39,503 bases of DNA from a virus (taxonomy: Duplodnaviria; Heunggongvirae; Uroviricota; Caudoviricetes): the IMG/VR virus record IMGVR_UViG_2718218309_000001; one strand, 5' to 3'. Position 1 is the stretch's first letter. Each line of letters starts with the position of its first letter. The translations under genes were made by a program, and so were the position numbers. Under the pieces are notes generated by a model. It was not told where the DNA came from, searched no databases, and saw only the letters and a list, made by a program, of their open reading frames with translations. Below, piece after piece: positions 3,828 through 39,464 of the stretch.

Positions 3828-5021
3828 TCACTTCTTGTCTTCGATAGAACCGTATTCAAGAAGGTTGTCCATACACTTCTCTAACCTATAGAAATCTGTC
3901 AAAGGATAGAGATTGACAATGTTGTCATCAAAACTTTGCATACCTGATAAACGTTCTTTCCTTCTTAAGAATCTTGAGGCAGACCTAACACCATCATCCT
4001 CACTTGGTTCACAGGAATAATCTAGAGTTTTTAGTACCTGCCATGAAACGGGGGGAGTAAGCTTGAACATTTTTACTAGCTTAGGACAGAAATCTTTTGT
4101 TATGGTTTGCTGATATGTAACTTTAGGTGGAAGAACAACGTTAATAGATTTATCACCATGGTTTGTTTTAATCATTCTTGTCGATCTGTATGCAATTCCG
4201 ACAATGTTTGATTTATTTCTACGACTAATCCATTGCATTAATAAATTTGGGATTATATATTCCTGAGTGAAAGATGTGCTGCCGTTAATCTTTGCAAAAC
4301 TACAAGCGTAAATTAGTGGCATTAAACAAATGTAAGACATCTTTGTGATGTATGACATTTTGTCATTATCAATCTTACCATAGAAACGTGAGTAGAGGAT
4401 TTCCGAAGTGAAATCTAATATTTTGGAATTTTCTTCACTGGATATAAAAGAAGATATATATAACTTATCAAAATCAGGTTTATCCATTTCAAGCCAACAT
4501 ACATATAGGGATGAGCCTAAATATAAACAGGGTAGACCTGCAACCGAGTATCTTTGGGCATTTACCAAGTGCCTTTTAGAGAATGGTATATGAAAGATTT
4601 CATTTCTATTTTTTACTGCTGTATCAGATTTTCTAACCCTGAATAAAGGTCTTGAAGAATTGCAAATATTCTCTAAGGGGATTGATATTTTCTGGATGTA
4701 GTTAGCTGTGAATCGATCAGAAAATGTTCTGTCGAAAGTATCATATGAGGACTTGATATCACCTGATAAAAAATATTCCAAAGAGCTTACAACGCCAAAG
4801 TATATTCTTGTTATTCTATCAAGTTTAGAACTCAATCTACGAGATAATTCATTGTCATTATCTTCTATGTAGTCATTTAAAGTATTAAAGTAAATTTCAC
4901 ATTTATTTTTAAAATCATTAATAATGTCGGTCTTAACAGTGAAAGGGAGTTTTAAATCTCCCGTCTTTATAAGGCTTTCAAATAAAAAATTAAAATCATC
5001 ATGTATATTTTCGGTTTCCAT
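3828..5021 (-). CDS. RES-domain-like protein (397 aa), candidate NAD+-targeting toxin/effector
   Basis: Motif block PLFRVR...QRYSVAGLPCLYLGSSLYVCWLE (aa about 125-179) matches the RES signature (Arg ... G.P.LYL.SS ... E) known from RES-Xre toxins; very AT-rich; second gene of an operon downstream of int. Confidence 0.55.
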   Translation of the reverse strand: METENIHDDFNFLFESLIKTGDLKLPFTVKTDIINDFKNKCEIYFNTLNDYIEDNDNELSRRLSSKLDRITRIYFGVVSSLEYFLSGDIKSSYDTFDRTFSDRFTANYIQKISIPLENICNSSRPLFRVRKSDTAVKNRNEIFHIPFSKRHLVNAQRYSVAGLPCLYLGSSLYVCWLEMDKPDFDKLYISSFISSEENSKILDFTSEILYSRFYGKIDNDKMSYITKMSYICLMPLIYACSFAKINGSTSFTQEYIIPNLLMQWISRRNKSNIVGIAYRSTRMIKTNHGDKSINVVLPPKVTYQQTITKDFCPKLVKMFKLTPPVSWQVLKTLDYSCEPSEDDGVRSASRFLRRKERLSGMQSFDDNIVNLYPLTDFYRLEKCMDNLLEYGSIEDKK

Positions 5022-5075: not shown

Positions 5076-6203
5076 TCATTCCAAATGATCTGCCGCCGCT
5101 TTGCCGCCAAGGATTTTCATATAAGGAGGCTTAGCATAAACCTCCTTGGTCTGCTGGAAAGTGGTTTTGGAGAATCTTCTTTCTTCTGATTGTAAATATT
5201 TTAGCAGACGTTGATATTTGTTTTCTAATATTTGACTATTCCCAGCCAGATCGTAAATATCGCAGGTTATGTTATAAAGCCAATAAACTACGGCTTTGAT
5301 TTCAGGCTCTGAGAAATAGGTTGTGTTAAATACATATTCATTATTATGATTGTAAATGTAGGAGTGTTTCCTTTGTATAGTGTTAACCTTAAGTAGCTTC
5401 ATAAGGTTGATAATTTTAAGGTCAATAGAAATTAAAGAAATTATCTCTGACTTCAAATCACCCTTTTTGATACCAATAATTTCTTTATCAAGTTCATTCC
5501 AGGCATTTATGATTTTTTGCGTGAATTTTGGGGAAGGGCTATAAATTGCACCAGTATTTTGTGAAGATTGAAATAAATTATTATAAAGCTTATGAGGAAA
5601 TACAATTTTCACTTCGTAAGTATTTACTTTTTCACTTGATTCTATATAAGCATGGCTAGCCACTTCAGCAGCCACATGCCTTGTTCGATCAGTCTGCGTG
5701 GGGATATATTCAAGAACCAAAGTAGGGAATGAACTAATCGTTTCGATAAATAGTTTTAAATGAGAGTAATAAGCGTCTGCATTGTTTTTAACTTTAGCTG
5801 ATTGTATCTGTGATTCAGTTTGAATGGTTCTATGAATATTATTTACTATTGAAGCCAGTGGCACTGATGAAGCTAATAATAGCAACGGAAGTTTACTAAT
5901 ATTAAGAAAATTTGCAAACCCGTCGGTTGTCAGTTGTAAACTATGATCTCTCCAAACCCAGCAACCGAATAAAATAAAATAGTAAAATGGTAATAAGATA
6001 GAAGCTATAAACAAAGGTTGTTTGAATAAATTATTGTCATTTAACTCAAACCACCCGTAAAAATAAAACAGTCCTATTGTTATAAATAATGAGGTTATTG
6101 CCACCGTTAAGAACATTACCTCAAAACCATAATATATTGTAAAAGTATTTGCAACTATGGATAGTAAGAGCAAAAAAGTTAAAGTGATAATTTTATTTTT
6201 CAT
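5076..6203 (-). CDS. Hypothetical membrane protein (375 aa): about 4 N-terminal TM helices plus about 280-aa soluble C-terminal domain
   Basis: Hydrophobic segments in the first 90 aa; start ATG (6203-6201) overlaps the int stop codon (TGA 6202-6200), i.e. ATGA translational coupling with int; AT-rich. Confidence 0.6.
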   Translation of the reverse strand: MKNKIITLTFLLLLSIVANTFTIYYGFEVMFLTVAITSLFITIGLFYFYGWFELNDNNLFKQPLFIASILLPFYYFILFGCWVWRDHSLQLTTDGFANFLNISKLPLLLLASSVPLASIVNNIHRTIQTESQIQSAKVKNNADAYYSHLKLFIETISSFPTLVLEYIPTQTDRTRHVAAEVASHAYIESSEKVNTYEVKIVFPHKLYNNLFQSSQNTGAIYSPSPKFTQKIINAWNELDKEIIGIKKGDLKSEIISLISIDLKIINLMKLLKVNTIQRKHSYIYNHNNEYVFNTTYFSEPEIKAVVYWLYNITCDIYDLAGNSQILENKYQRLLKYLQSEERRFSKTTFQQTKEVYAKPPYMKILGGKAAADHLE

Positions 6204-7219
6204 AAGTTAATCATATTCAACGGGTTTTTGGTAACTGCATCTTCTAAATGATCTGGGGAGAAATGTGCATAGATCATTGTCATCTTAATATCGGCATGCC
6301 CAAGAATTTCTTTAAGAACAAGTATATTACCGCCATTCATCATGAAATAGCTTGCGAAGGTATGCCGCAGCACGTGGGTACATTGGCCCTCTGGCAAGTC
6401 GATACCAGCTCGTTTCACTGCGCGCTCAAAAGCTTTTCTGCATGGCGTGAATAGTTTCCCTCTGTTTTTGGGGAGTTCATCATACAGCTCCTGAGATATC
6501 GGTATGGTACGGTTTTTCTTGCCTTTAGTTTTGGTATAGGTGATCCGGTATTTAGTTAACTGATGGCCTTGAAGGTTTTCTGCTTCACTCCATCGCGCGC
6601 CGGTAGCCAGGCATATTTTTGCAATCATCAATAGGCTGGAGCTATGAGAATCTGCGCAAGCATCAAGCAGGCGTTTAATTTCTTCCGTGGTCAGGAACGC
6701 CAGCTCACCTTCTGCGATTTTAAATGTTGGCAAACCGGCGAGTGGATTGGGTGCTGACCAATGGCCCAACTTTTTCAGTGTGCCAAACACGGATGATAGG
6801 TTGCGTTGTTCAAGGTTTACCGTGCGAGGCTTAACTGGCGACATAAGCACGCCATCTTCATTTCGCACCTCACCTTTTAGCCGTGCTTCGCGGTATTTCG
6901 TAAAGTCGCCAGCGGTTAACTCTGAGGCAACAGGATCACCCAGGCCGTTACAAATAATGTTGAGTTTTGCCATCAGGCGTTTGGGGTCAGCAAGTGTCTG
7001 CCCGTAGAGTGAATGCCATTGCTCAATCACTTCTGACAAACGCCGCCGATCTTCTTTCTCACCCAACCACGGTTTTTTGTTTACTTCGTCCATGGTGTGA
7101 TTTTCGAATGCTATGGCCTCACCTTTCGTCGCAAATTGTTTGCGCACACGCTTGCCGTCGCGCCCGTTAGGGTAGCACTCACATAACCATTTACCGTTCG
7201 GCTGTTTTCTGATGGTCAT
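6200..7219 (-). CDS. int: P2/186-type tyrosine integrase
   Basis: 339-aa protein with N-terminal MTIRKQPNGKWLCE... and C-terminal catalytic residues (R...HVLRHTFAS...YAHF), as in P2 Int; located next to the repressor gene as in P2/186. Confidence 0.9.
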   Translation of the reverse strand: MTIRKQPNGKWLCECYPNGRDGKRVRKQFATKGEAIAFENHTMDEVNKKPWLGEKEDRRRLSEVIEQWHSLYGQTLADPKRLMAKLNIICNGLGDPVASELTAGDFTKYREARLKGEVRNEDGVLMSPVKPRTVNLEQRNLSSVFGTLKKLGHWSAPNPLAGLPTFKIAEGELAFLTTEEIKRLLDACADSHSSSLLMIAKICLATGARWSEAENLQGHQLTKYRITYTKTKGKKNRTIPISQELYDELPKNRGKLFTPCRKAFERAVKRAGIDLPEGQCTHVLRHTFASYFMMNGGNILVLKEILGHADIKMTMIYAHFSPDHLEDAVTKNPLNMINL

Positions 7220-13316: not shown

Positions 13317-13408
13317 TTACGCGGGTTAACAATTCGTGCTCTTAATAATACCAGGCATATCAGGCTGATGAACGTAAAAAAACGTTTTACATCAGTAAGA
13401 TTATTATA

Positions 13409-13428
13409 TACTGTAAATATAAACAGTG
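13409..13428. promoter_or_regulatory. LexA box (SOS operator) TACTGTAAATATAAACAGTG
   Basis: Matches CTGT-N8-ACAG with AT-rich spacer; lies about 45 bp upstream of ORF 13470 and the DinI-like gene. Confidence 0.55.
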
Positions 13429-13469
13429 TTTATGCATACAGTGTTGCTTGTGGTGTCATAGGAGGAAAG

Positions 13470-13658
13470 ATGCAGGACTATTTTTTGGAGTCTTTGAAGC
13501 TCCAGCGCATTGATTTTTTTCTTAAGCTTGTAGCGGCTAGTGAGTGTAGTGATGAAGAGAAGGGGCTGGCTCTGCAGTGGGTTTCTGAATTGACTGATGA
13601 ACTCATGGCAAAAATCAGAAGCCACGAATACAACCGCTCAATGGATGTCATCAGCTGA
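13470..13658 (+). CDS. Hypothetical small protein (62 aa), first gene of putative SOS-controlled operon
   Basis: GGAGGA RBS 4-9 nt upstream of ATG 13470; preceded by LexA box. Confidence 0.5.
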   Translation: MQDYFLESLKLQRIDFFLKLVAASECSDEEKGLALQWVSELTDELMAKIRSHEYNRSMDVIS

Positions 13659-13668
13659 GGTGACTTTT

Positions 13669-13902
13669 ATGCGCATTGAAATAATGATCGATAAAGAGCA
13701 GAAGATTAGCCAGTCTACCCTGGACGCTCTGGAGTCCGAGCTTTACCGCAACCTGCAACCCATCTATCCCAAGACAGCTATCCGCATCCGTAAAGGGTCG
13801 GCAAACGGCGTTGAGCTGAGTGGCTTAAAGCTTGATGAAGACAAAAAGCGGGTGATGGAAATTATGCAGCAGGTTTGGGAAGACGACAGCTGGCTGCACT
13901 AA
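13669..13902 (+). CDS. dinI: DinI-family protein (77 aa)
   Basis: MRIEIMIDKEQ...LDALESEL...IMQQVWEDDSWL follows the DinI pattern (MRIEV...ETWE..DW); GAGGTG RBS. Confidence 0.8.
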   Translation: MRIEIMIDKEQKISQSTLDALESELYRNLQPIYPKTAIRIRKGSANGVELSGLKLDEDKKRVMEIMQQVWEDDSWLH

Positions 13903-13975
13903 GGAACGTTCCTGATGTAAGAACTTGATTCTGACGTCAGCAAGGTTGAACAACGAGAGTAGCGAGGCGTTAGCC

Positions 13976-14236
13976 ATGGGTAAAAAAGACAGTAATCACC
14001 AGATTATTTATCGGGGCCAGGTGCTGGAACGGTTTACCCCTGGCGGCTGGGTCTTCTTTCAACGCCCAAAGGAGTGTGGCGGAGGTTTTTGGTTGGGCCG
14101 CACCTATGAAGACTGCTTCTGGCTTGAGCTGGAATTCCCCGTTTCGCTATATGACGGCCTGGAGTTTTTGATGGAAGTCACCAGGGTAGAGCAGAGAAGT
14201 GATGAGGTTGACGCGAATTATTCCCTGTTTGATTAA
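13976..14236 (+). CDS. Hypothetical protein (86 aa), possible Tum-like or other accessory protein
   Basis: ORF following the DinI-like gene; assignment is positional only. Confidence 0.45.
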   Translation: MGKKDSNHQIIYRGQVLERFTPGGWVFFQRPKECGGGFWLGRTYEDCFWLELEFPVSLYDGLEFLMEVTRVEQRSDEVDANYSLFD

Positions 14237-14284
14237 AAATGTATTAGCTTATAATGGAATACTATTTTTGCAGGTGGGGGCGCA

Positions 14285-14896
14285 ATGGATTTAGTCTTTA
14301 AAATTCTGGCTTCGTTGGGTGGGGTGTCTTTTGTTGCATCTGGCATATTTGTTTGGATCGGGAAAGTTTATTTAGAAAGATATAAGTCGCGGCTAAACAA
14401 AGATATTGCTGAATTTCAATCACAACTGAGTGCAACTAATGAAAGAATAAAGGCTAAGTTAGACAATTCTGTTTATGTAACGAAAGCGTATTTTGATAAG
14501 GAGTTATCAGCATATAGTCTCATTTGGAATTCGATGTTTGAAACCAGAGAAAGCGTGCTTAAGCTGAGGCCTGCGCTGGATCATTTTGACCCCAACGAAC
14601 CATTTGAAGAGAGAAAATTTAGAAGGTTGAAAGTTTTTTTCGATGCATTTAATACTTTTGTTACAAGTGTTGAGTCTAACAAACCGTTCATCTCACCAGA
14701 GGTTTATATAATCTTGGACCGTTTCCGGAAGGAATGCTTTTCAGAGTCAATATCGTTTCAGCATGGCGATCCAGAATTTGACTGGCAAAATTATTGGAAA
14801 GAGGCAGAGTTGAATCGTACAACCATCACCAAGCTTTTTGATGAGACGTGTGATGCAATTCGAGACAGGATGCACACATTAACTGTGGTTACGTAG
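14285..14896 (+). CDS. Hypothetical membrane-anchored protein (203 aa; N-terminal TM helix plus helical cytoplasmic domain); hotspot cargo at the tin/old position
   Basis: N-terminal hydrophobic segment ILASLGGVSFVASGIFVWIG; AT-rich; lies between gene A and cos where P2 carries the anti-phage genes tin and old. Confidence 0.6.
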   Translation: MDLVFKILASLGGVSFVASGIFVWIGKVYLERYKSRLNKDIAEFQSQLSATNERIKAKLDNSVYVTKAYFDKELSAYSLIWNSMFETRESVLKLRPALDHFDPNEPFEERKFRRLKVFFDAFNTFVTSVESNKPFISPEVYIILDRFRKECFSESISFQHGDPEFDWQNYWKEAELNRTTITKLFDETCDAIRDRMHTLTVVT

Positions 14897-14987
14897 TTTT
14901 CCAAAAAGTCTCGATGCCCGCTTTGGCGATTGTGCATGTCTATGCCGCATGAATCCGCATGATCGTTTGAGGATCGTTTTAGCTGAG

Positions 14988-15011
14988 GCCCGCTAGGAAT
15001 GGCGGGCTTTT
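14988..15011 (+). terminator. Rho-independent terminator (GCCCGC-loop-GCGGGC followed by TTTT)
   Basis: Perfect 6-bp GC stem with 8-nt loop and T tract downstream of ORF 14285-14896. Confidence 0.45.
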
Positions 15012-15056
15012 GCTTATGTCATGCAGACGCATGAAAACCACTACATAAAGCGGGCA

Positions 15057-15075
15057 GGCGTGGCGGGGATACGAG
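15057..15075. other. cos site (cohesive-end sequence) of the P2/186-type prophage
   Basis: GGCGTGGCGGGGATACGAG closely matches the 19-nt cohesive ends of 186 (GGCGTGGCGGGGAAAGCAT) and P2 (GGCGAGGCGGGGAAAGCAC), recalled from memory. Confidence 0.55.
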
Positions 15076-15185
15076 CGCGCGCTCATGGTTGAATTAATGA
15101 AATTATGGTGTTAAATAGGCTAGCTTTTTAAGTCGTGAATATTCAATTTTTCAACTCATTTTTTTCATAGGGAGGAGTAATTGAC

Positions 15186-15884
15186 ATGGTTATGTTAGTG
15201 GATGACTGTCCACGATGTGGATCACAAAAAATAGCGTTTGATGTTAATGGGCTGAATTGCACTAGGGTTTACAATGCATTGGGCGGGGGTAAAACATACG
15301 AGTACGAGGTCTATTGTGTTTGCCGAGAGTGTCATAAAACGACAATGTTTCTTTGCAGACCTTTAACGAAAAATAAAACTTTAGATGGCTATAATTGGGA
15401 AAGTGGAATATTCGGCTTAAAGGAAGTTGCAGAGGTTGTTAGGCCTATATCACCGGCAGACTTAGCAGTAGAGGAGCCACCAGAGTTCTTACCTGAGCAT
15501 ATCAATAGTACATATGAGGAAGGGGCGAAATGTTTGGCTATAGGTTGTTATAATGCAGCAGCAACCATGTTTAGGCTTTGCCTTGATTATGCCACAAAAG
15601 GACTTCTTCCTGATGGGGAGCAAGGGCCTGCGCAAAAAATAAGGAGAAGCCTAGGGTTAAGAATGGAGTGGTTATTTGATAATCATCTACTGCCTGAAGC
15701 TTTAAGGGAACTAGCTGAATGCGTTAAAGATGACGGAAATGATGGAGCGCATGAAGGTATTTTGGATAAAGCTGCTGCTGAGGATCTTGAAGATTTTACC
15801 TATCTTTTTTTAGAACGGCTTTACACTGAACCTCAACGCCTTATCGAAGCCAAGACAAGGCGTGAACAAAGAAGAAACAAATAA
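15186..15884 (+). CDS. Hypothetical Zn-ribbon protein (232 aa): N-terminal CPRCG...CRECH plus C-terminal helical domain; cargo between cos and Q
   Basis: Cx2C-N30-Cx2C at the N-terminus; GGAGGAG RBS; AT-rich; stop is only 8 bp from the Q stop. Confidence 0.65.
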   Translation: MVMLVDDCPRCGSQKIAFDVNGLNCTRVYNALGGGKTYEYEVYCVCRECHKTTMFLCRPLTKNKTLDGYNWESGIFGLKEVAEVVRPISPADLAVEEPPEFLPEHINSTYEEGAKCLAIGCYNAAATMFRLCLDYATKGLLPDGEQGPAQKIRRSLGLRMEWLFDNHLLPEALRELAECVKDDGNDGAHEGILDKAAAEDLEDFTYLFLERLYTEPQRLIEAKTRREQRRNK

Positions 15885-15892
15885 GTTCGGAA

Positions 15893-16930
15893 TTATTCTT
15901 CTGAAAGAATATAGGGCGTAAATTTAATCACTTCTTCGCCCAGCCAGTCGTTCAGCTCTTGTAGCCTTTTTTGCAAGGGCGTTAATTCATTACGTACAAA
16001 TACGCGACTGGCCTTCTCCACATCCCCAAACCCCCCGACATTATTAGGCATTATCCCCATCATTTGTGGCGGCACACGATGCGCCGCCATCATGTCGTCC
16101 CGGCTCACGTTCTTGATATTCAGGAACTCATCCTTCGCCGCCACTTCTGACAACGGGATAATCTGAAGCCCGTCCTTTTTACCGTTAGGCGAGTACATAA
16201 ACAGGTTACGGAAGTTACCAGGACCTTTGGCGCTTTTCATCGCATTGCGGAGGTTGTTCACATCCTCCTGGTTCTGTGCTGCATCGGTCATGTACATGAT
16301 GAAGCCTGCATGACTGCCGTTAATGTAATACTTGCGGCGGAACAGCGTGGCGGACTCGTTGAGCAGAGCTGACGGAATGGCAGAAAGATAACCAGGCAGG
16401 CCGTAGATCTCCTGGTTGATGTCCGGTTCCATCAGATGAAAAATGTTGCCTTTCGTGAACTGATACGGCTGCGTAGTCATGCCGTATTGCACAAACCAGT
16501 AGGTATCAAGGTCTAACCCGCGTCGGGTGTATTTTGCCAGTGCAGGCTCAAGGGCGATAACTTCACCGAAGCGGTTCGTGCGTTTCTCCAGGTAGGCGTT
16601 ACCAAAAACCAGATAGTCCTGTACAAAACGCGAAAAAGCCTGCTGGCTGAGCAGCGGGTGAGGGATGTAGGTGCTGGTCAGAATGTTGCACTTCACTGCA
16701 ATCGGTGAGCTGTGATGCACGGCGGCGCGGAAGGTTCGCGCCAGTCCGTCGAAACTCACAGGCGGCTCGTACCAACGATCCATCTGTACGCATTCCACAT
16801 AGTCCAGCAGTTCGCGGCGGTCCAGAACAGGAACGGGATCACCGAAGCTGAATGCTTCGGCTGAAGTCTGGCTTTTATGCTGGATCTGTTTCGTCGACGC
16901 AGCGCGGTTCTTCTTACTCTTTCCCATCAA
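15893..16930 (-). CDS. Q: Portal protein (P2 gpQ)
   Basis: 345-aa protein, size and position (leftward, next to cos, before P) match P2 Q. Confidence 0.95.
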   Translation of the reverse strand: MMGKSKKNRAASTKQIQHKSQTSAEAFSFGDPVPVLDRRELLDYVECVQMDRWYEPPVSFDGLARTFRAAVHHSSPIAVKCNILTSTYIPHPLLSQQAFSRFVQDYLVFGNAYLEKRTNRFGEVIALEPALAKYTRRGLDLDTYWFVQYGMTTQPYQFTKGNIFHLMEPDINQEIYGLPGYLSAIPSALLNESATLFRRKYYINGSHAGFIMYMTDAAQNQEDVNNLRNAMKSAKGPGNFRNLFMYSPNGKKDGLQIIPLSEVAAKDEFLNIKNVSRDDMMAAHRVPPQMMGIMPNNVGGFGDVEKASRVFVRNELTPLQKRLQELNDWLGEEVIKFTPYILSEE

Positions 16931-37507: not shown

Positions 37508-37597
37508 TTCTTCACAATGGAGAACTTTTAAGTTTGAAAAATGGAATAATGCGATATCATTATTGTGAATTTAGCAAAAATGGGGAGAACTCGAAAA

Positions 37598-37816
37598 ATG
37601 ATGATTTGCCCACTGTGTGGAAGTGCCGCCCATACTCGCAGCAGTTTTCAGGTATCTTCATTGACCAAAGAGCGTTACAACCAGTGCCAGAACATTAACT
37701 GCAGCCATACTTTTGTTACCCATGAAACTTTTGTTCGTTCGATTGCAACGCCAAAAGAGTCAAATCCGGTTCAGCCGCATCCTCATAAATTTAAACAGGT
37801 GGGTTTGCCGATTTAA
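37598..37816 (+). CDS. ogr: Late gene transcriptional activator Ogr (zinc-finger)
   Basis: MMICPLCGSAAHTRSS...KERYNQCQNINCSHTF parallels P2 Ogr (CPLC...KERYHQCQNVNCSATF); 72 aa from ATG 37598. Confidence 0.9.
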   Translation: MMICPLCGSAAHTRSSFQVSSLTKERYNQCQNINCSHTFVTHETFVRSIATPKESNPVQPHPHKFKQVGLPI

Positions 37817-38077: not shown

Positions 38078-38251
38078 ATGGATACAAACGAACTTGGCTT
38101 AGTTAAGGCGCGTGTTGAACTGATCACCGCTATGCTCAAATGCGCAACCGCGTTTGTTGGCTTAGTTGGTGCGGTTTACGCCGTTCTTAACATGGCCTTC
38201 AACTACAACAATTTAACTCATGACAATAGAAGTTCAAAGGTGGGAAGATAA
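38078..38251 (+). CDS. Small single-TM protein (57 aa from ATG 38078; 62 aa from ATG 38063)
   Basis: Strong RBS GGAGGA (38065-38070) 7 nt before ATG 38078; hydrophobic helix CATAFVGLVGAVYAVLNMAF; 3' end overlaps the RT start by about 30 nt. Confidence 0.45.
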   Translation: MDTNELGLVKARVELITAMLKCATAFVGLVGAVYAVLNMAFNYNNLTHDNRSSKVGR

Positions 38252-38993
38252 ATTTGAGATTAAGCCCGGGGTTTGGGTTTATGTCCCAAGCGTTGAGGCA
38301 CGTAAAGTCGGAGGGAAGATACTTCAGGCTGTCAGAAACAAGTGGATTCCGCCACTCTATTTTTACCATCTAAGAACTGGTGGGCATCTTAAAGCTGCCA
38401 GATTACACTTAAAAAGTGATTTTTTTGCCGTTGTTGATATTAAACAATTTTTTCAGTCAACGAGCCGTAGTCGTATCACCCGTGATCTAAAGAGCTACTT
38501 CACCTATTCTCAAGCGCGGGAAATCTCAACATTTTCAACTGTAAGAAACTTGTCCCATAGTCCACATAAGCATGTCCTCCCTTTTGGTTTTGTTCAATCT
38601 CCAATACTTGCAACCCTCTGCTTAGATAAAAGTTATTTTGGTAGCTTACTACGCCGATTGAACAAACATCATGATCTCAAGCTAAGTGTGTTTATGGATG
38701 ATGTGATCATCTCGTCAAACGATTTGGCCCAATTACAAGCGGCTTACGACGAAGCACTAGTGGCAATGCGTAAATCTGGTTATCAAGCCAACATGAGTAA
38801 AACTCAGGCACCATCGTCAAAGATTAGCGTGTTTAATTTAACTTTGAGTAAGGGAGTTATGAAAGTCACATCTCAGAAAATGAGTGACTTCCTGATTGAT
38901 TTCTATTCAAGCAATTATGAGCCGCACAGAATAGGGGTCAAAAACTACGTCGAAGCTGTTAATCCAGGGCAAGCGAAACTCTTTAAGTTGTAA
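38220..38993 (+). CDS. Compact reverse transcriptase (257 aa; fingers/palm only), defence-associated RT candidate
   Basis: RT motifs in order: motif 2 FFAVVDIKQFF (catalytic Asp), motif 4 LPFGFVQSPILATL, motif 5 VFMDDVII (FMDD at 38691-38702), motif 6 YQANMSKT; no obvious thumb, maturase or retron VTG region; AT-rich; between ogr and attR. Confidence 0.8.
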   Translation: MTIEVQRWEDKFEIKPGVWVYVPSVEARKVGGKILQAVRNKWIPPLYFYHLRTGGHLKAARLHLKSDFFAVVDIKQFFQSTSRSRITRDLKSYFTYSQAREISTFSTVRNLSHSPHKHVLPFGFVQSPILATLCLDKSYFGSLLRRLNKHHDLKLSVFMDDVIISSNDLAQLQAAYDEALVAMRKSGYQANMSKTQAPSSKISVFNLTLSKGVMKVTSQKMSDFLIDFYSSNYEPHRIGVKNYVEAVNPGQAKLFKL

Positions 38994-39101: not shown

Positions 39102-39146
39102 TGGTGGAGCTGGCGGGAGTTGAACCCGCGTCCGAAATTCCTACAT
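39102..39146. repeat. 45-bp att core within the ssrA 3' end (direct repeat partner of 3670-3714)
   Basis: Identical 45-mer; this copy is part of the intact tmRNA gene. Confidence 0.9.
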
Positions 39147-39464
39147 CCTCGGTACTACATGCTTAGTCAGTCTTTACATTCGCTTGCCAGCTGCGGACGG
39201 ACACGCCACTAACAAACTAGCCTGATTAAGTTTTAACGCTTCAACCCCAGGCAGGGCTTCCACGCGATCTCTTTTGGGTTTGACCTCTCTTGATCCCCGT
39301 CCTAAGAGCGGAGGCTAGGGAGAGAGGGCTCTAAGCAGGTTATTAAGCTGCTAAAGCGTAGTTTTCGTCGTTTGCGACTATTTTTTGCGGCTTTTTACGA
39401 GGCCAACCGCCCCTCGGCATGCACCTTGGGTTTCGCAAATCCCGTCGAATCCAGAATCAGCCCC
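39102..39464 (-). ncRNA. ssrA: tmRNA (transfer-messenger RNA, SsrA), 363 nt
   Basis: Reverse complement reads GGGGCTGATTCTGGATTCGACGGG...GCAAACGACGAAAACTACGCTTTAGCAGCTTAA (tag peptide ANDENYALAA)...GGTTCAACTCCCGCCAGCTCCACCA, matching the E. coli tmRNA sequence. Confidence 0.97.

Follow-up and report, generated by a model that had tools for sequence, protein, structure and literature searches.

A zinc-ribbon DUF4145/HEPN gene between cos and the portal gene of a P2-like prophage, probably encoding a defence RNase of the RAZR type

The defence protein PD-T7-4, a zinc finger fused to a ribonuclease-family domain, was obtained by functional selection in E. coli, and its gene was reported to be one that 'often overlaps an integrase gene' (Vassallo et al., 2022, PMC9519451). 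It was renamed RAZR (ring-activated zinc-finger RNase) in 2026, with the protein from E. coli UMB1727 as the example (PDB entry 9y9c; Zhang et al., 2026, PMC13017515). RAZR combines a Cys4 zinc-finger domain at its N-terminus with an RNase domain of the DUF4145/HEPN kind. It is inactive alone and forms a 24-mer around rings of T7-type portal proteins or of an Erf-like recombinase; once activated, it cuts single-stranded RNA non-specifically, leading to abortive infection. The substitutions R146A and H154A each abolish defence, and the zinc-finger domain, the most variable part of the protein, sets the specificity (PMC13017515). DUF4145 had been assigned to the HEPN superfamily, and its fusions to zinc ribbons recorded, by Anantharaman et al. 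(PMC3710099). DS-38, a validated E. coli defence protein, is described in the DefensePredictor preprint (bioRxiv 10.1101/2025.01.08.631726), which comes from the PD-T7-4 laboratory, as having HEPN and zinc-finger domains, of which the HEPN domain alone aligns with PD-T7-4.

The cos-proximal interval between gpA and gpQ is a hotspot of P2 prophages, for which 1,650 arrangements were collected by Rousset et al. (2022, PMC9122126); a PRTase+DprA system from this locus was shown to be anti-phage in the same study. The interval was listed as P2 defence hotspot #1 by Vassallo et al. (PMC9519451). In P2 itself no gene lies between cos (1-19) and the end of Q (187), where only the terminator tQ is found, in line with the original prediction for the locus described here.

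The window is the whole stretch of DNA that was analysed, 39,503 nucleotides of IMG/VR record IMGVR_UViG_2718218309_000001. It contains a P2-like prophage. Over 14900-16000 it shows 99.8% identity both with E. coli LF82 and with Cartapus (NC_070909), a phage record whose coordinate 1 corresponds to window position 15025. The features around cos are as follows (window coordinates).

14985-15015, + strand: terminator-like hairpin (11-bp stem, GGAA loop, T run), strong in the RNA fold of 14890-15030; it ends the upstream 203-aa gene
15057-15075, no strand: cos core GGCGTGGCGGGGATACGAG, a 19-nt cohesive-end sequence of the P2/186 type, read from the sequence and supported by the Cartapus annotation; left border of the cargo slot
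15076-15170, + strand: AT-rich leader, expected from the upstream hairpin and from transcription in LF82 to hold the promoter of the gene
15171-15177, + strand: strong ribosome-binding site GGAGGAG, read from the sequence, 8 nt before the ATG
15186-15884, + strand: coding sequence of the 232-aa zinc-ribbon and DUF4145/HEPN protein, from the open-reading-frame list (ATG start, stop codon included)
15186-15470, + strand: N-terminal Cys4 domain (aa 1-95), presumed sensor domain, with two CxxC knuckles (C8/C11 and C46/C49) on a four-stranded beta sheet
15471-15800, + strand: DUF4145/HEPN domain (aa 96-205), presumed RNase effector
15726-15752, + strand: putative active-site motif K181-DDGNDGA-H189, aligned with R146-IVGNQAV-H154 of RAZR
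15801-15881, + strand: basic C-terminal helix (aa 206-232, pI 10.4), from the charge count and an AF2 helix at 195-231
15893-16930, - strand: portal gene (P2 gpQ homologue), from the open-reading-frame list and the Cartapus annotation, convergent with the cargo gene; right border of the cargo slot

The reading frame at 15186-15884 is a real, conserved gene. Its product corresponds to Cartapus gp01, LF82_788 and WP_000245245.1 with the single substitution T109A (one residue different, 99.6% identity), and Cartapus gp01 already carries the annotation 'DUF4145 domain-containing protein'. On the Cartapus map and in the LF82 annotation the gene is flanked by replication gene A on one side and portal gene Q on the other, an arrangement also seen for homologues in E. 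coli, Citrobacter, Serratia and Pantoea. Its start codon follows 111 nt after the cos core, which is itself contained in the 'putative cos site' of Cartapus (1-59 of the record, 15025-15083 of the window). The zinc-ribbon stop codon ends at 15884 and that of the portal gene occupies 15893-15895, so that the two convergent stops are separated by the 8 nt originally stated. The zinc-ribbon frame, described as AT-rich, indeed has a GC content of only 41.6%; that of the portal gene is 51.7% and that of the large terminase gene 56.6%. A word-indexed search returned 603 homologues at E<=1e-3, nearly all of 228-240 aa; an exhaustive search returned 906 clusters at 50% identity, 137 of them below 1e-30.

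The predicted 232-aa frame with its own ribosome-binding site and paired Cx2C motifs was confirmed, the cysteines being C8-x2-C11 and C46-x2-C49. In 40 homologues (down to 48% identity) the invariant residues were C8, C11, C46, C49, E112, N123, R130, K181 and G184 through H189. The original prediction had also proposed an acidic helical C-terminal domain and a search for a HEPN-like fold within it. Residues 96-205 are indeed acidic (pI 4.4) and helical in the AF2 model, but the tail (206-232) is basic. The C-terminal half adopts an all-helical HEPN fold in the AF2 single-chain model (pLDDT 85.8), and residues 114-203 match Pfam DUF4145 (PF13643), a HEPN-superfamily family, with 30.3 bits against a gathering cut-off of 23.1. 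For the N-terminal domain no significant structural neighbour was returned by the structure search. The two halves differ in their conservation: mean pairwise identity in the close-family profile (A1) was 0.22-0.41 for the N-terminal domain versus 0.66 for the HEPN domain. In the full-length model pLDDT falls below 50 in the loop 183-187 (DGNDG) at the putative active site and nowhere else, yet this loop belongs to the most conserved stretch of the family; on this model the site may become ordered only in an oligomer.

The relationship to RAZR was found at the level of profiles. The PD-T7-4 model was the sole PADLOC match of the window protein (E 1.1e-6, 26.3 bits, model positions 39-165 of 211; judged by E-value and not by the thresholds of PADLOC itself), and the same model matched 44 of 60 diverse family members, with a best E of 3.4e-11. 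A wider profile (A2) was built from 60 representatives at 50% identity; the RAZR chain 9y9c_OA was the only PDB sequence that it matched significantly (E 2.5e-4), profile positions 70-220 falling on RAZR 47-190. Alignment of the window family with RAZR by hhalign gave a probability of 94.6% (E 6.7e-8), and BLASTP gave 26% identity over 136 aa. With the single sequence, phmmer against PDB sequences placed 9y9c_OA only at E about 1, and the close-family profile A1 had no match among PDB sequences. In the alignments VKDDGNDGAH falls on CRIVGNQAVH and (F/L)RLCL is also superposed, so K181 is taken as the equivalent of R146 and H189 as that of H154. His189 is invariant, and the spacing of seven residues between the two motif ends is that of RAZR. 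RAZR/PD-T7-4 is the closest characterised relative that emerged from these comparisons, the kinship being remote.

Position 181 is lysine in all 40 close homologues, while the wider family (n = 60) has Arg in 40, Lys in 16, Gln in three and Thr in one. With lysine in place of arginine the predicted RNase may or may not be catalytically competent; the tight conservation of the motif argues that the active site is under selection. HEPN domains work as dimers. The protein might be a catalytically altered HEPN protein that binds RNA without cutting it. It would then serve either as a regulator or, towards a host HEPN/RAZR-type defence, as a decoy or inhibitor, in the latter case an anti-defence factor for the phage: the residue replaced in K181 is essential in RAZR, the gene is phage-borne, and a mixed dimer could poison the host enzyme. 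This is improbable, since His189, the GN(D)GA motif and Lys181 are all invariant over the 40 sequences, which suggests a constrained active site, and since R and K alternate at position 181 within one family in which the motif is otherwise identical. Moreover, most homologues are chromosomal and lie outside phages, and expression occurs in the lysogen instead of being confined to lytic growth. Of the two roles originally offered, defence is the best reading, and no support was found for anti-defence.

The distribution of the gene identifies it as acquired prophage cargo and not as a packaging gene. The cos region (14932-15082) is common to about 1230-1270 E. coli genomes, homology stopping just after cos, near 15082-15087, and the gene was present in 45 of the 5426 complete E. 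coli genomes searched; it is therefore missing from about 96% of the genomes that share the cos region. This presence/absence comparison, which had been called for in the original prediction, upholds the proposal of acquired cargo, the slot being empty in P2 and variably filled elsewhere. The surprise that the same prediction implied at finding a gene here was misplaced: the interval is a published hotspot (PMC9122126, PMC9519451), and among nine sampled E. coli P2-like prophages without the gene, seven carry other cargo between cos and Q (PRTase+DprA; DprA alone; an AAA_22-like ATPase; a nuclease with an AAA ATPase; three hypothetical genes; an AAA ATPase; a P-loop NTPase). In the remaining two the slot is empty, and the portal gene follows about 150 nt after cos. 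The LF82 protein WP_000245245 is itself present in the hotspot-arrangement table of Rousset et al. (PMC9122126), and DUF4145 is absent from the tested-systems file of that study. The 'Putative HEPN' system cloned there from the P2 locus (pFR103) was considered as an earlier test of the family and was rejected, being an unrelated, larger protein.

Cargo flanks cos to the left and to the right (window 14932-15892; loci L015-L017 and L102-L107), and each side assorts independently of the other: UMNF18, for example, shares the upstream 203-aa gene with the window but has another gene on the Q side. Two independently assorting cargo slots that flank cos are a new, smaller point of this work.

A position beside cos and the portal and terminase genes could also be functional, if the protein were an accessory packaging or cos-binding protein. 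The window protein matches phrog_1305 (E 9e-53), which bears the PHROG label 'DNA binding protein', and copies in Enterobacterales are repeatedly convergent with a portal gene: homologues 53-88% identical in E. coli/Citrobacter, Serratia and Pantoea all face a P2-type portal gene. A full-length homologue in the unrelated actinophage Gordonia phage Meyran (ON724009.1, 145-759; 27% identity) is gene 1 at the genome end, a placement like that of the window gene. A packaging function is nevertheless very improbable. The gene is missing from P2 as well as from most E. coli genomes with the cos region, other prophages have unrelated cargo in this slot, the protein is folded like an RNase and unlike known cos-binding proteins, and the gene is transcribed while the late genes are off. 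At 75 of 80 homologous loci from species representatives no P2-type portal or terminase gene occurs within 4 kb; the other five have one. (This set was gathered with the close alignment, as the wide alignment had no conserved stretch.) The outcome that the original prediction had named as contrary to its proposal, homologues at this site in all related phages and with a packaging role, is thus not what was observed.

The surroundings of the homologues vary. The upstream cargo of the E. coli/Citrobacter, Serratia and Pantoea copies differs (GAPS4, HicAB, a DUF2971-like protein). The Oceanimonas homologue adjoins an integrase, IS91, AbiTii and ParE and the Aliivibrio homologue adjoins AbiH; the Nitrospira and Kushneria homologues stand alone among housekeeping genes. 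Remote full-length homologues are present in temperate phages (Burkholderia phi644-2, Stx phages, Gordonia Meyran). No conserved partner gene was found at the homologous loci. A small upstream partner had been suspected from the Nitrospira and Kushneria loci; the idea was rejected because the small frames are mutually unrelated and without a Pfam match.

Because the upstream gene ends in the terminator-like hairpin at 14985-15015, the zinc-ribbon gene needs a promoter of its own within 15016-15170. The sigma70 promoter originally suggested at 15089-15117 is weak and could not be substantiated: a scan of the + strand gave no consensus promoter there or elsewhere in the leader, and in the upstream alignment TTGAAT (15089-15094) is present in four of the five closest prophage copies (TTGAAA in the copy at L019), with no conserved -10 element at the proper spacing. 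A terminator between the convergent stops was also sought by scanning and folding; none was found, the folds being no better than shuffles (z about -1), and there is no GC-rich equivalent of P2 tQ between the two stops.

Transcription was assessed with the LF82 RNA-seq data of Misson et al. (2023, PMC9928086, S1 Table), in which LF82_788/CARTA_1 is the window gene, with matching coordinates. After overnight growth in LB the normalised reads were 25.1 and 26.2 for the zinc-ribbon gene, 7.9 and 7.5 for the portal gene and 5.0 and 6.5 for the terminase gene. In LB the gene is therefore about threefold over its neighbours, under the fivefold moron cut-off of PMC9928086, and it is far above them in DMEM and in macrophages. 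Values of log2(fpkm+5) for the zinc-ribbon gene were 4.7 in LB, 7.0-7.2 and 7.6 after 1 and 6 h in DMEM, and 9.2 and 9.5-9.6 after 1 and 6 h in macrophages; the portal gene stayed at 2.5-3.1 in all conditions (PMC9928086). Since the transcript rises while the portal gene remains low, the gene is transcribed in the lysogen independently of the late operon. The independent expression claimed in the original prediction is borne out by these data, with the gene on and the portal gene silent, and by the upstream hairpin.

Across 13368-15884 of the window, the zinc-ribbon gene and the 203-aa gene both rise about 30-fold from LB to macrophages and are already up in DMEM, and DinI and its neighbours are strongly up in macrophages only (PMC9928086). 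The rise from stationary phase in LB, its onset in DMEM and the like behaviour of the neighbouring moron LF82_789 would suit a gene of host physiology, that is, a stress- or intracellular-growth-responsive RNase or RNA-binding regulator that aids the lysogen, for example inside macrophages. Early-region prophage genes such as DinI rise too, so the increase in macrophages may reflect partial derepression or SOS. A host-physiology role is unlikely, as the family is found elsewhere in mobile or defence-like contexts, the hypervariability of the sensor domain is what an arms race would be expected to produce, and the nearest characterised relative is a defence protein.

The explanation that we prefer, at a probability of roughly 0.7, is that the gene is a moron encoding a single-protein abortive-infection defence RNase of the zinc-ribbon and DUF4145/HEPN (RAZR) type. 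A defence-RNase function is the most likely one because the effector half is homologous to that of RAZR and the architecture is identical. By analogy, the lysogen would make the protein constitutively from its own promoter, and the protein would be harmless alone. On infection by another phage, the variable N-terminal Cys4 domain would bind a phage-made protein assembly, and this binding would rearrange an oligomer such that adjacent subunits bring their HEPN domains together into composite active sites (K181, N185 and H189). These sites would then cut single-stranded RNA non-specifically, translation would stop and the infection would be aborted, which would protect the lysogen population and the prophage. 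The nucleic-acid sensing that had originally been suggested finds no support in RAZR, the only characterised relative, where ring-shaped phage proteins are what the zinc finger senses and RNase activity belongs to the HEPN domain (PMC13017515). The sensor domain of the window protein has no recognisable likeness to its RAZR counterpart, so the trigger need not be a portal or recombinase ring; a ring-shaped trigger specifically is a tentative suggestion and somewhat doubtful.

A bolder version of this reading may be put forward. Within the zinc-ribbon HEPN defence proteins, the protein would represent a separate branch that has a Lys-type active site and a new kind of sensor domain, and the placement of its gene would be functional: late antisense transcription from P-Q would shut the gene off as the phage's own portal rings accumulate, shielding the phage from a portal-sensing protein carried against competitors. 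The idea arises because RAZR-type proteins can respond to portal rings and the gene sits 8 nt from its own portal gene; as no tQ-like terminator separates the stops, late P-Q transcription should read antisense through the gene. Taken as a whole, we regard this proposal as a long shot.

Other cargo candidates were noted in the window. The 203-aa frame at 14285-14896 (+ strand), on the gpA side of cos, is LF82_789/CARTA_47 and matches phrog_26391; it had no significant Pfam match (sub-threshold only) and no PADLOC match. It was reported as a moron, sevenfold over background and macrophage-induced (PMC9928086), and may be a second gene, independent of the first, with a role in defence or fitness. 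The RefSeq label 'valyl-tRNA synthetase' of its UMNF18 homologue is probably wrong (Val_tRNA-synt_C, 16.7 bits against a cut-off of 25.9). A 257-aa reverse transcriptase is encoded at 38220-38993 (+ strand; Pfam RVT_1, E 2e-21; best PADLOC model retron RT_VI, E 6.6e-18), between an ogr-like gene (37565-37816) and a tmRNA gene, and may represent cargo of the retron type at the right end of the prophage; no retron RNA of Rfam reached the gathering threshold. The ssrA tmRNA gene (39102-39464, - strand; Rfam 295.8 bits; ARAGORN tag ANDENYALAA) is situated immediately beyond the prophage, a position that points to integration at ssrA or close by. Two frames at 3828-5021 (397 aa) and 5076-6203 (375 aa), both on the - strand and without a Pfam or PADLOC match, adjoin the integrase gene (6200-7219, - strand). 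Near its attachment-site ends Cartapus instead carries genes for a RES-domain protein and an exonuclease. With these integrase-side differences, the window prophage appears unlike Cartapus outside the cos region.

The locus as a hotspot, the domain pair, the mechanism of a relative and the DUF4145 annotation were already published, and current views are not overturned. What is new is the assignment, predicted from sequence, of a large distinct branch with another sensor domain and a Lys variant to the RAZR type. Should the protein act as RAZR does, a second, widespread branch (906 clusters at 50% identity, from many bacterial phyla) would be added to a defence family for which a mechanism became available only in 2026. 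Its different sensor domain would make it possible to ask which features of phage assemblies are recognised, and the natural replacement of Arg by Lys offers a test of the HEPN active site that is already at hand. The locus also raises the question of how a phage keeps from setting off its own immune sensor, if that sensor responds to portal-like rings. In LF82 the gene is one of the few Cartapus genes expressed in macrophages.

Among known systems, other HEPN proteins provide the more distant comparisons. HEPN-MNT toxins, the C-terminal domain of AbiA and Csm6 differ from the window protein, which has no MNT antitoxin, polymerase domain or CARF domain; the canonical HEPN motif is R-x4-6-H, whereas the window protein has R/K-x7-H, as does RAZR. 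DS-38, compared by its description in the preprint only, shares with the window protein the same domain pair and an alignment to PD-T7-4 through the HEPN domain alone. The known cargo of the P2 hotspot (old, tin, PRTase+DprA and others) resembles the window gene in being at the same locus, AT-rich, independently transcribed and variably present; it differs in that the P2 genes old and tin are located on the gpA side of cos and the zinc-ribbon gene on the Q side.

RAZR differs from the window protein in several respects. The identity is about 25% and is restricted to the linker and the HEPN half. The N-terminal domain of the window protein has about 95 aa, against 65 aa (1-65) for the zinc-finger domain of RAZR, and the two do not align; the RAZR zinc ribbon is of the RPB9/TFIIS type and contacts the trigger, and the window protein has the Cys4 set. 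Lys replaces the catalytic Arg146 across the close subfamily of the window protein, and the gene occupies the cos-Q slot of a P2-like prophage, while PD-T7-4 is often at an integrase gene. Each system is one protein of similar size (219 aa in RAZR, 232 aa in the window) in which an N-terminal Cys4 zinc-binding domain is followed by a C-terminal DUF4145/HEPN domain. The motifs E..A, (L/F)RLCL and (R/K)-x2-GN-x3-H occur at the same spacing, and both have a variable sensor domain joined to a conserved effector, carriage on mobile elements and no partner gene.
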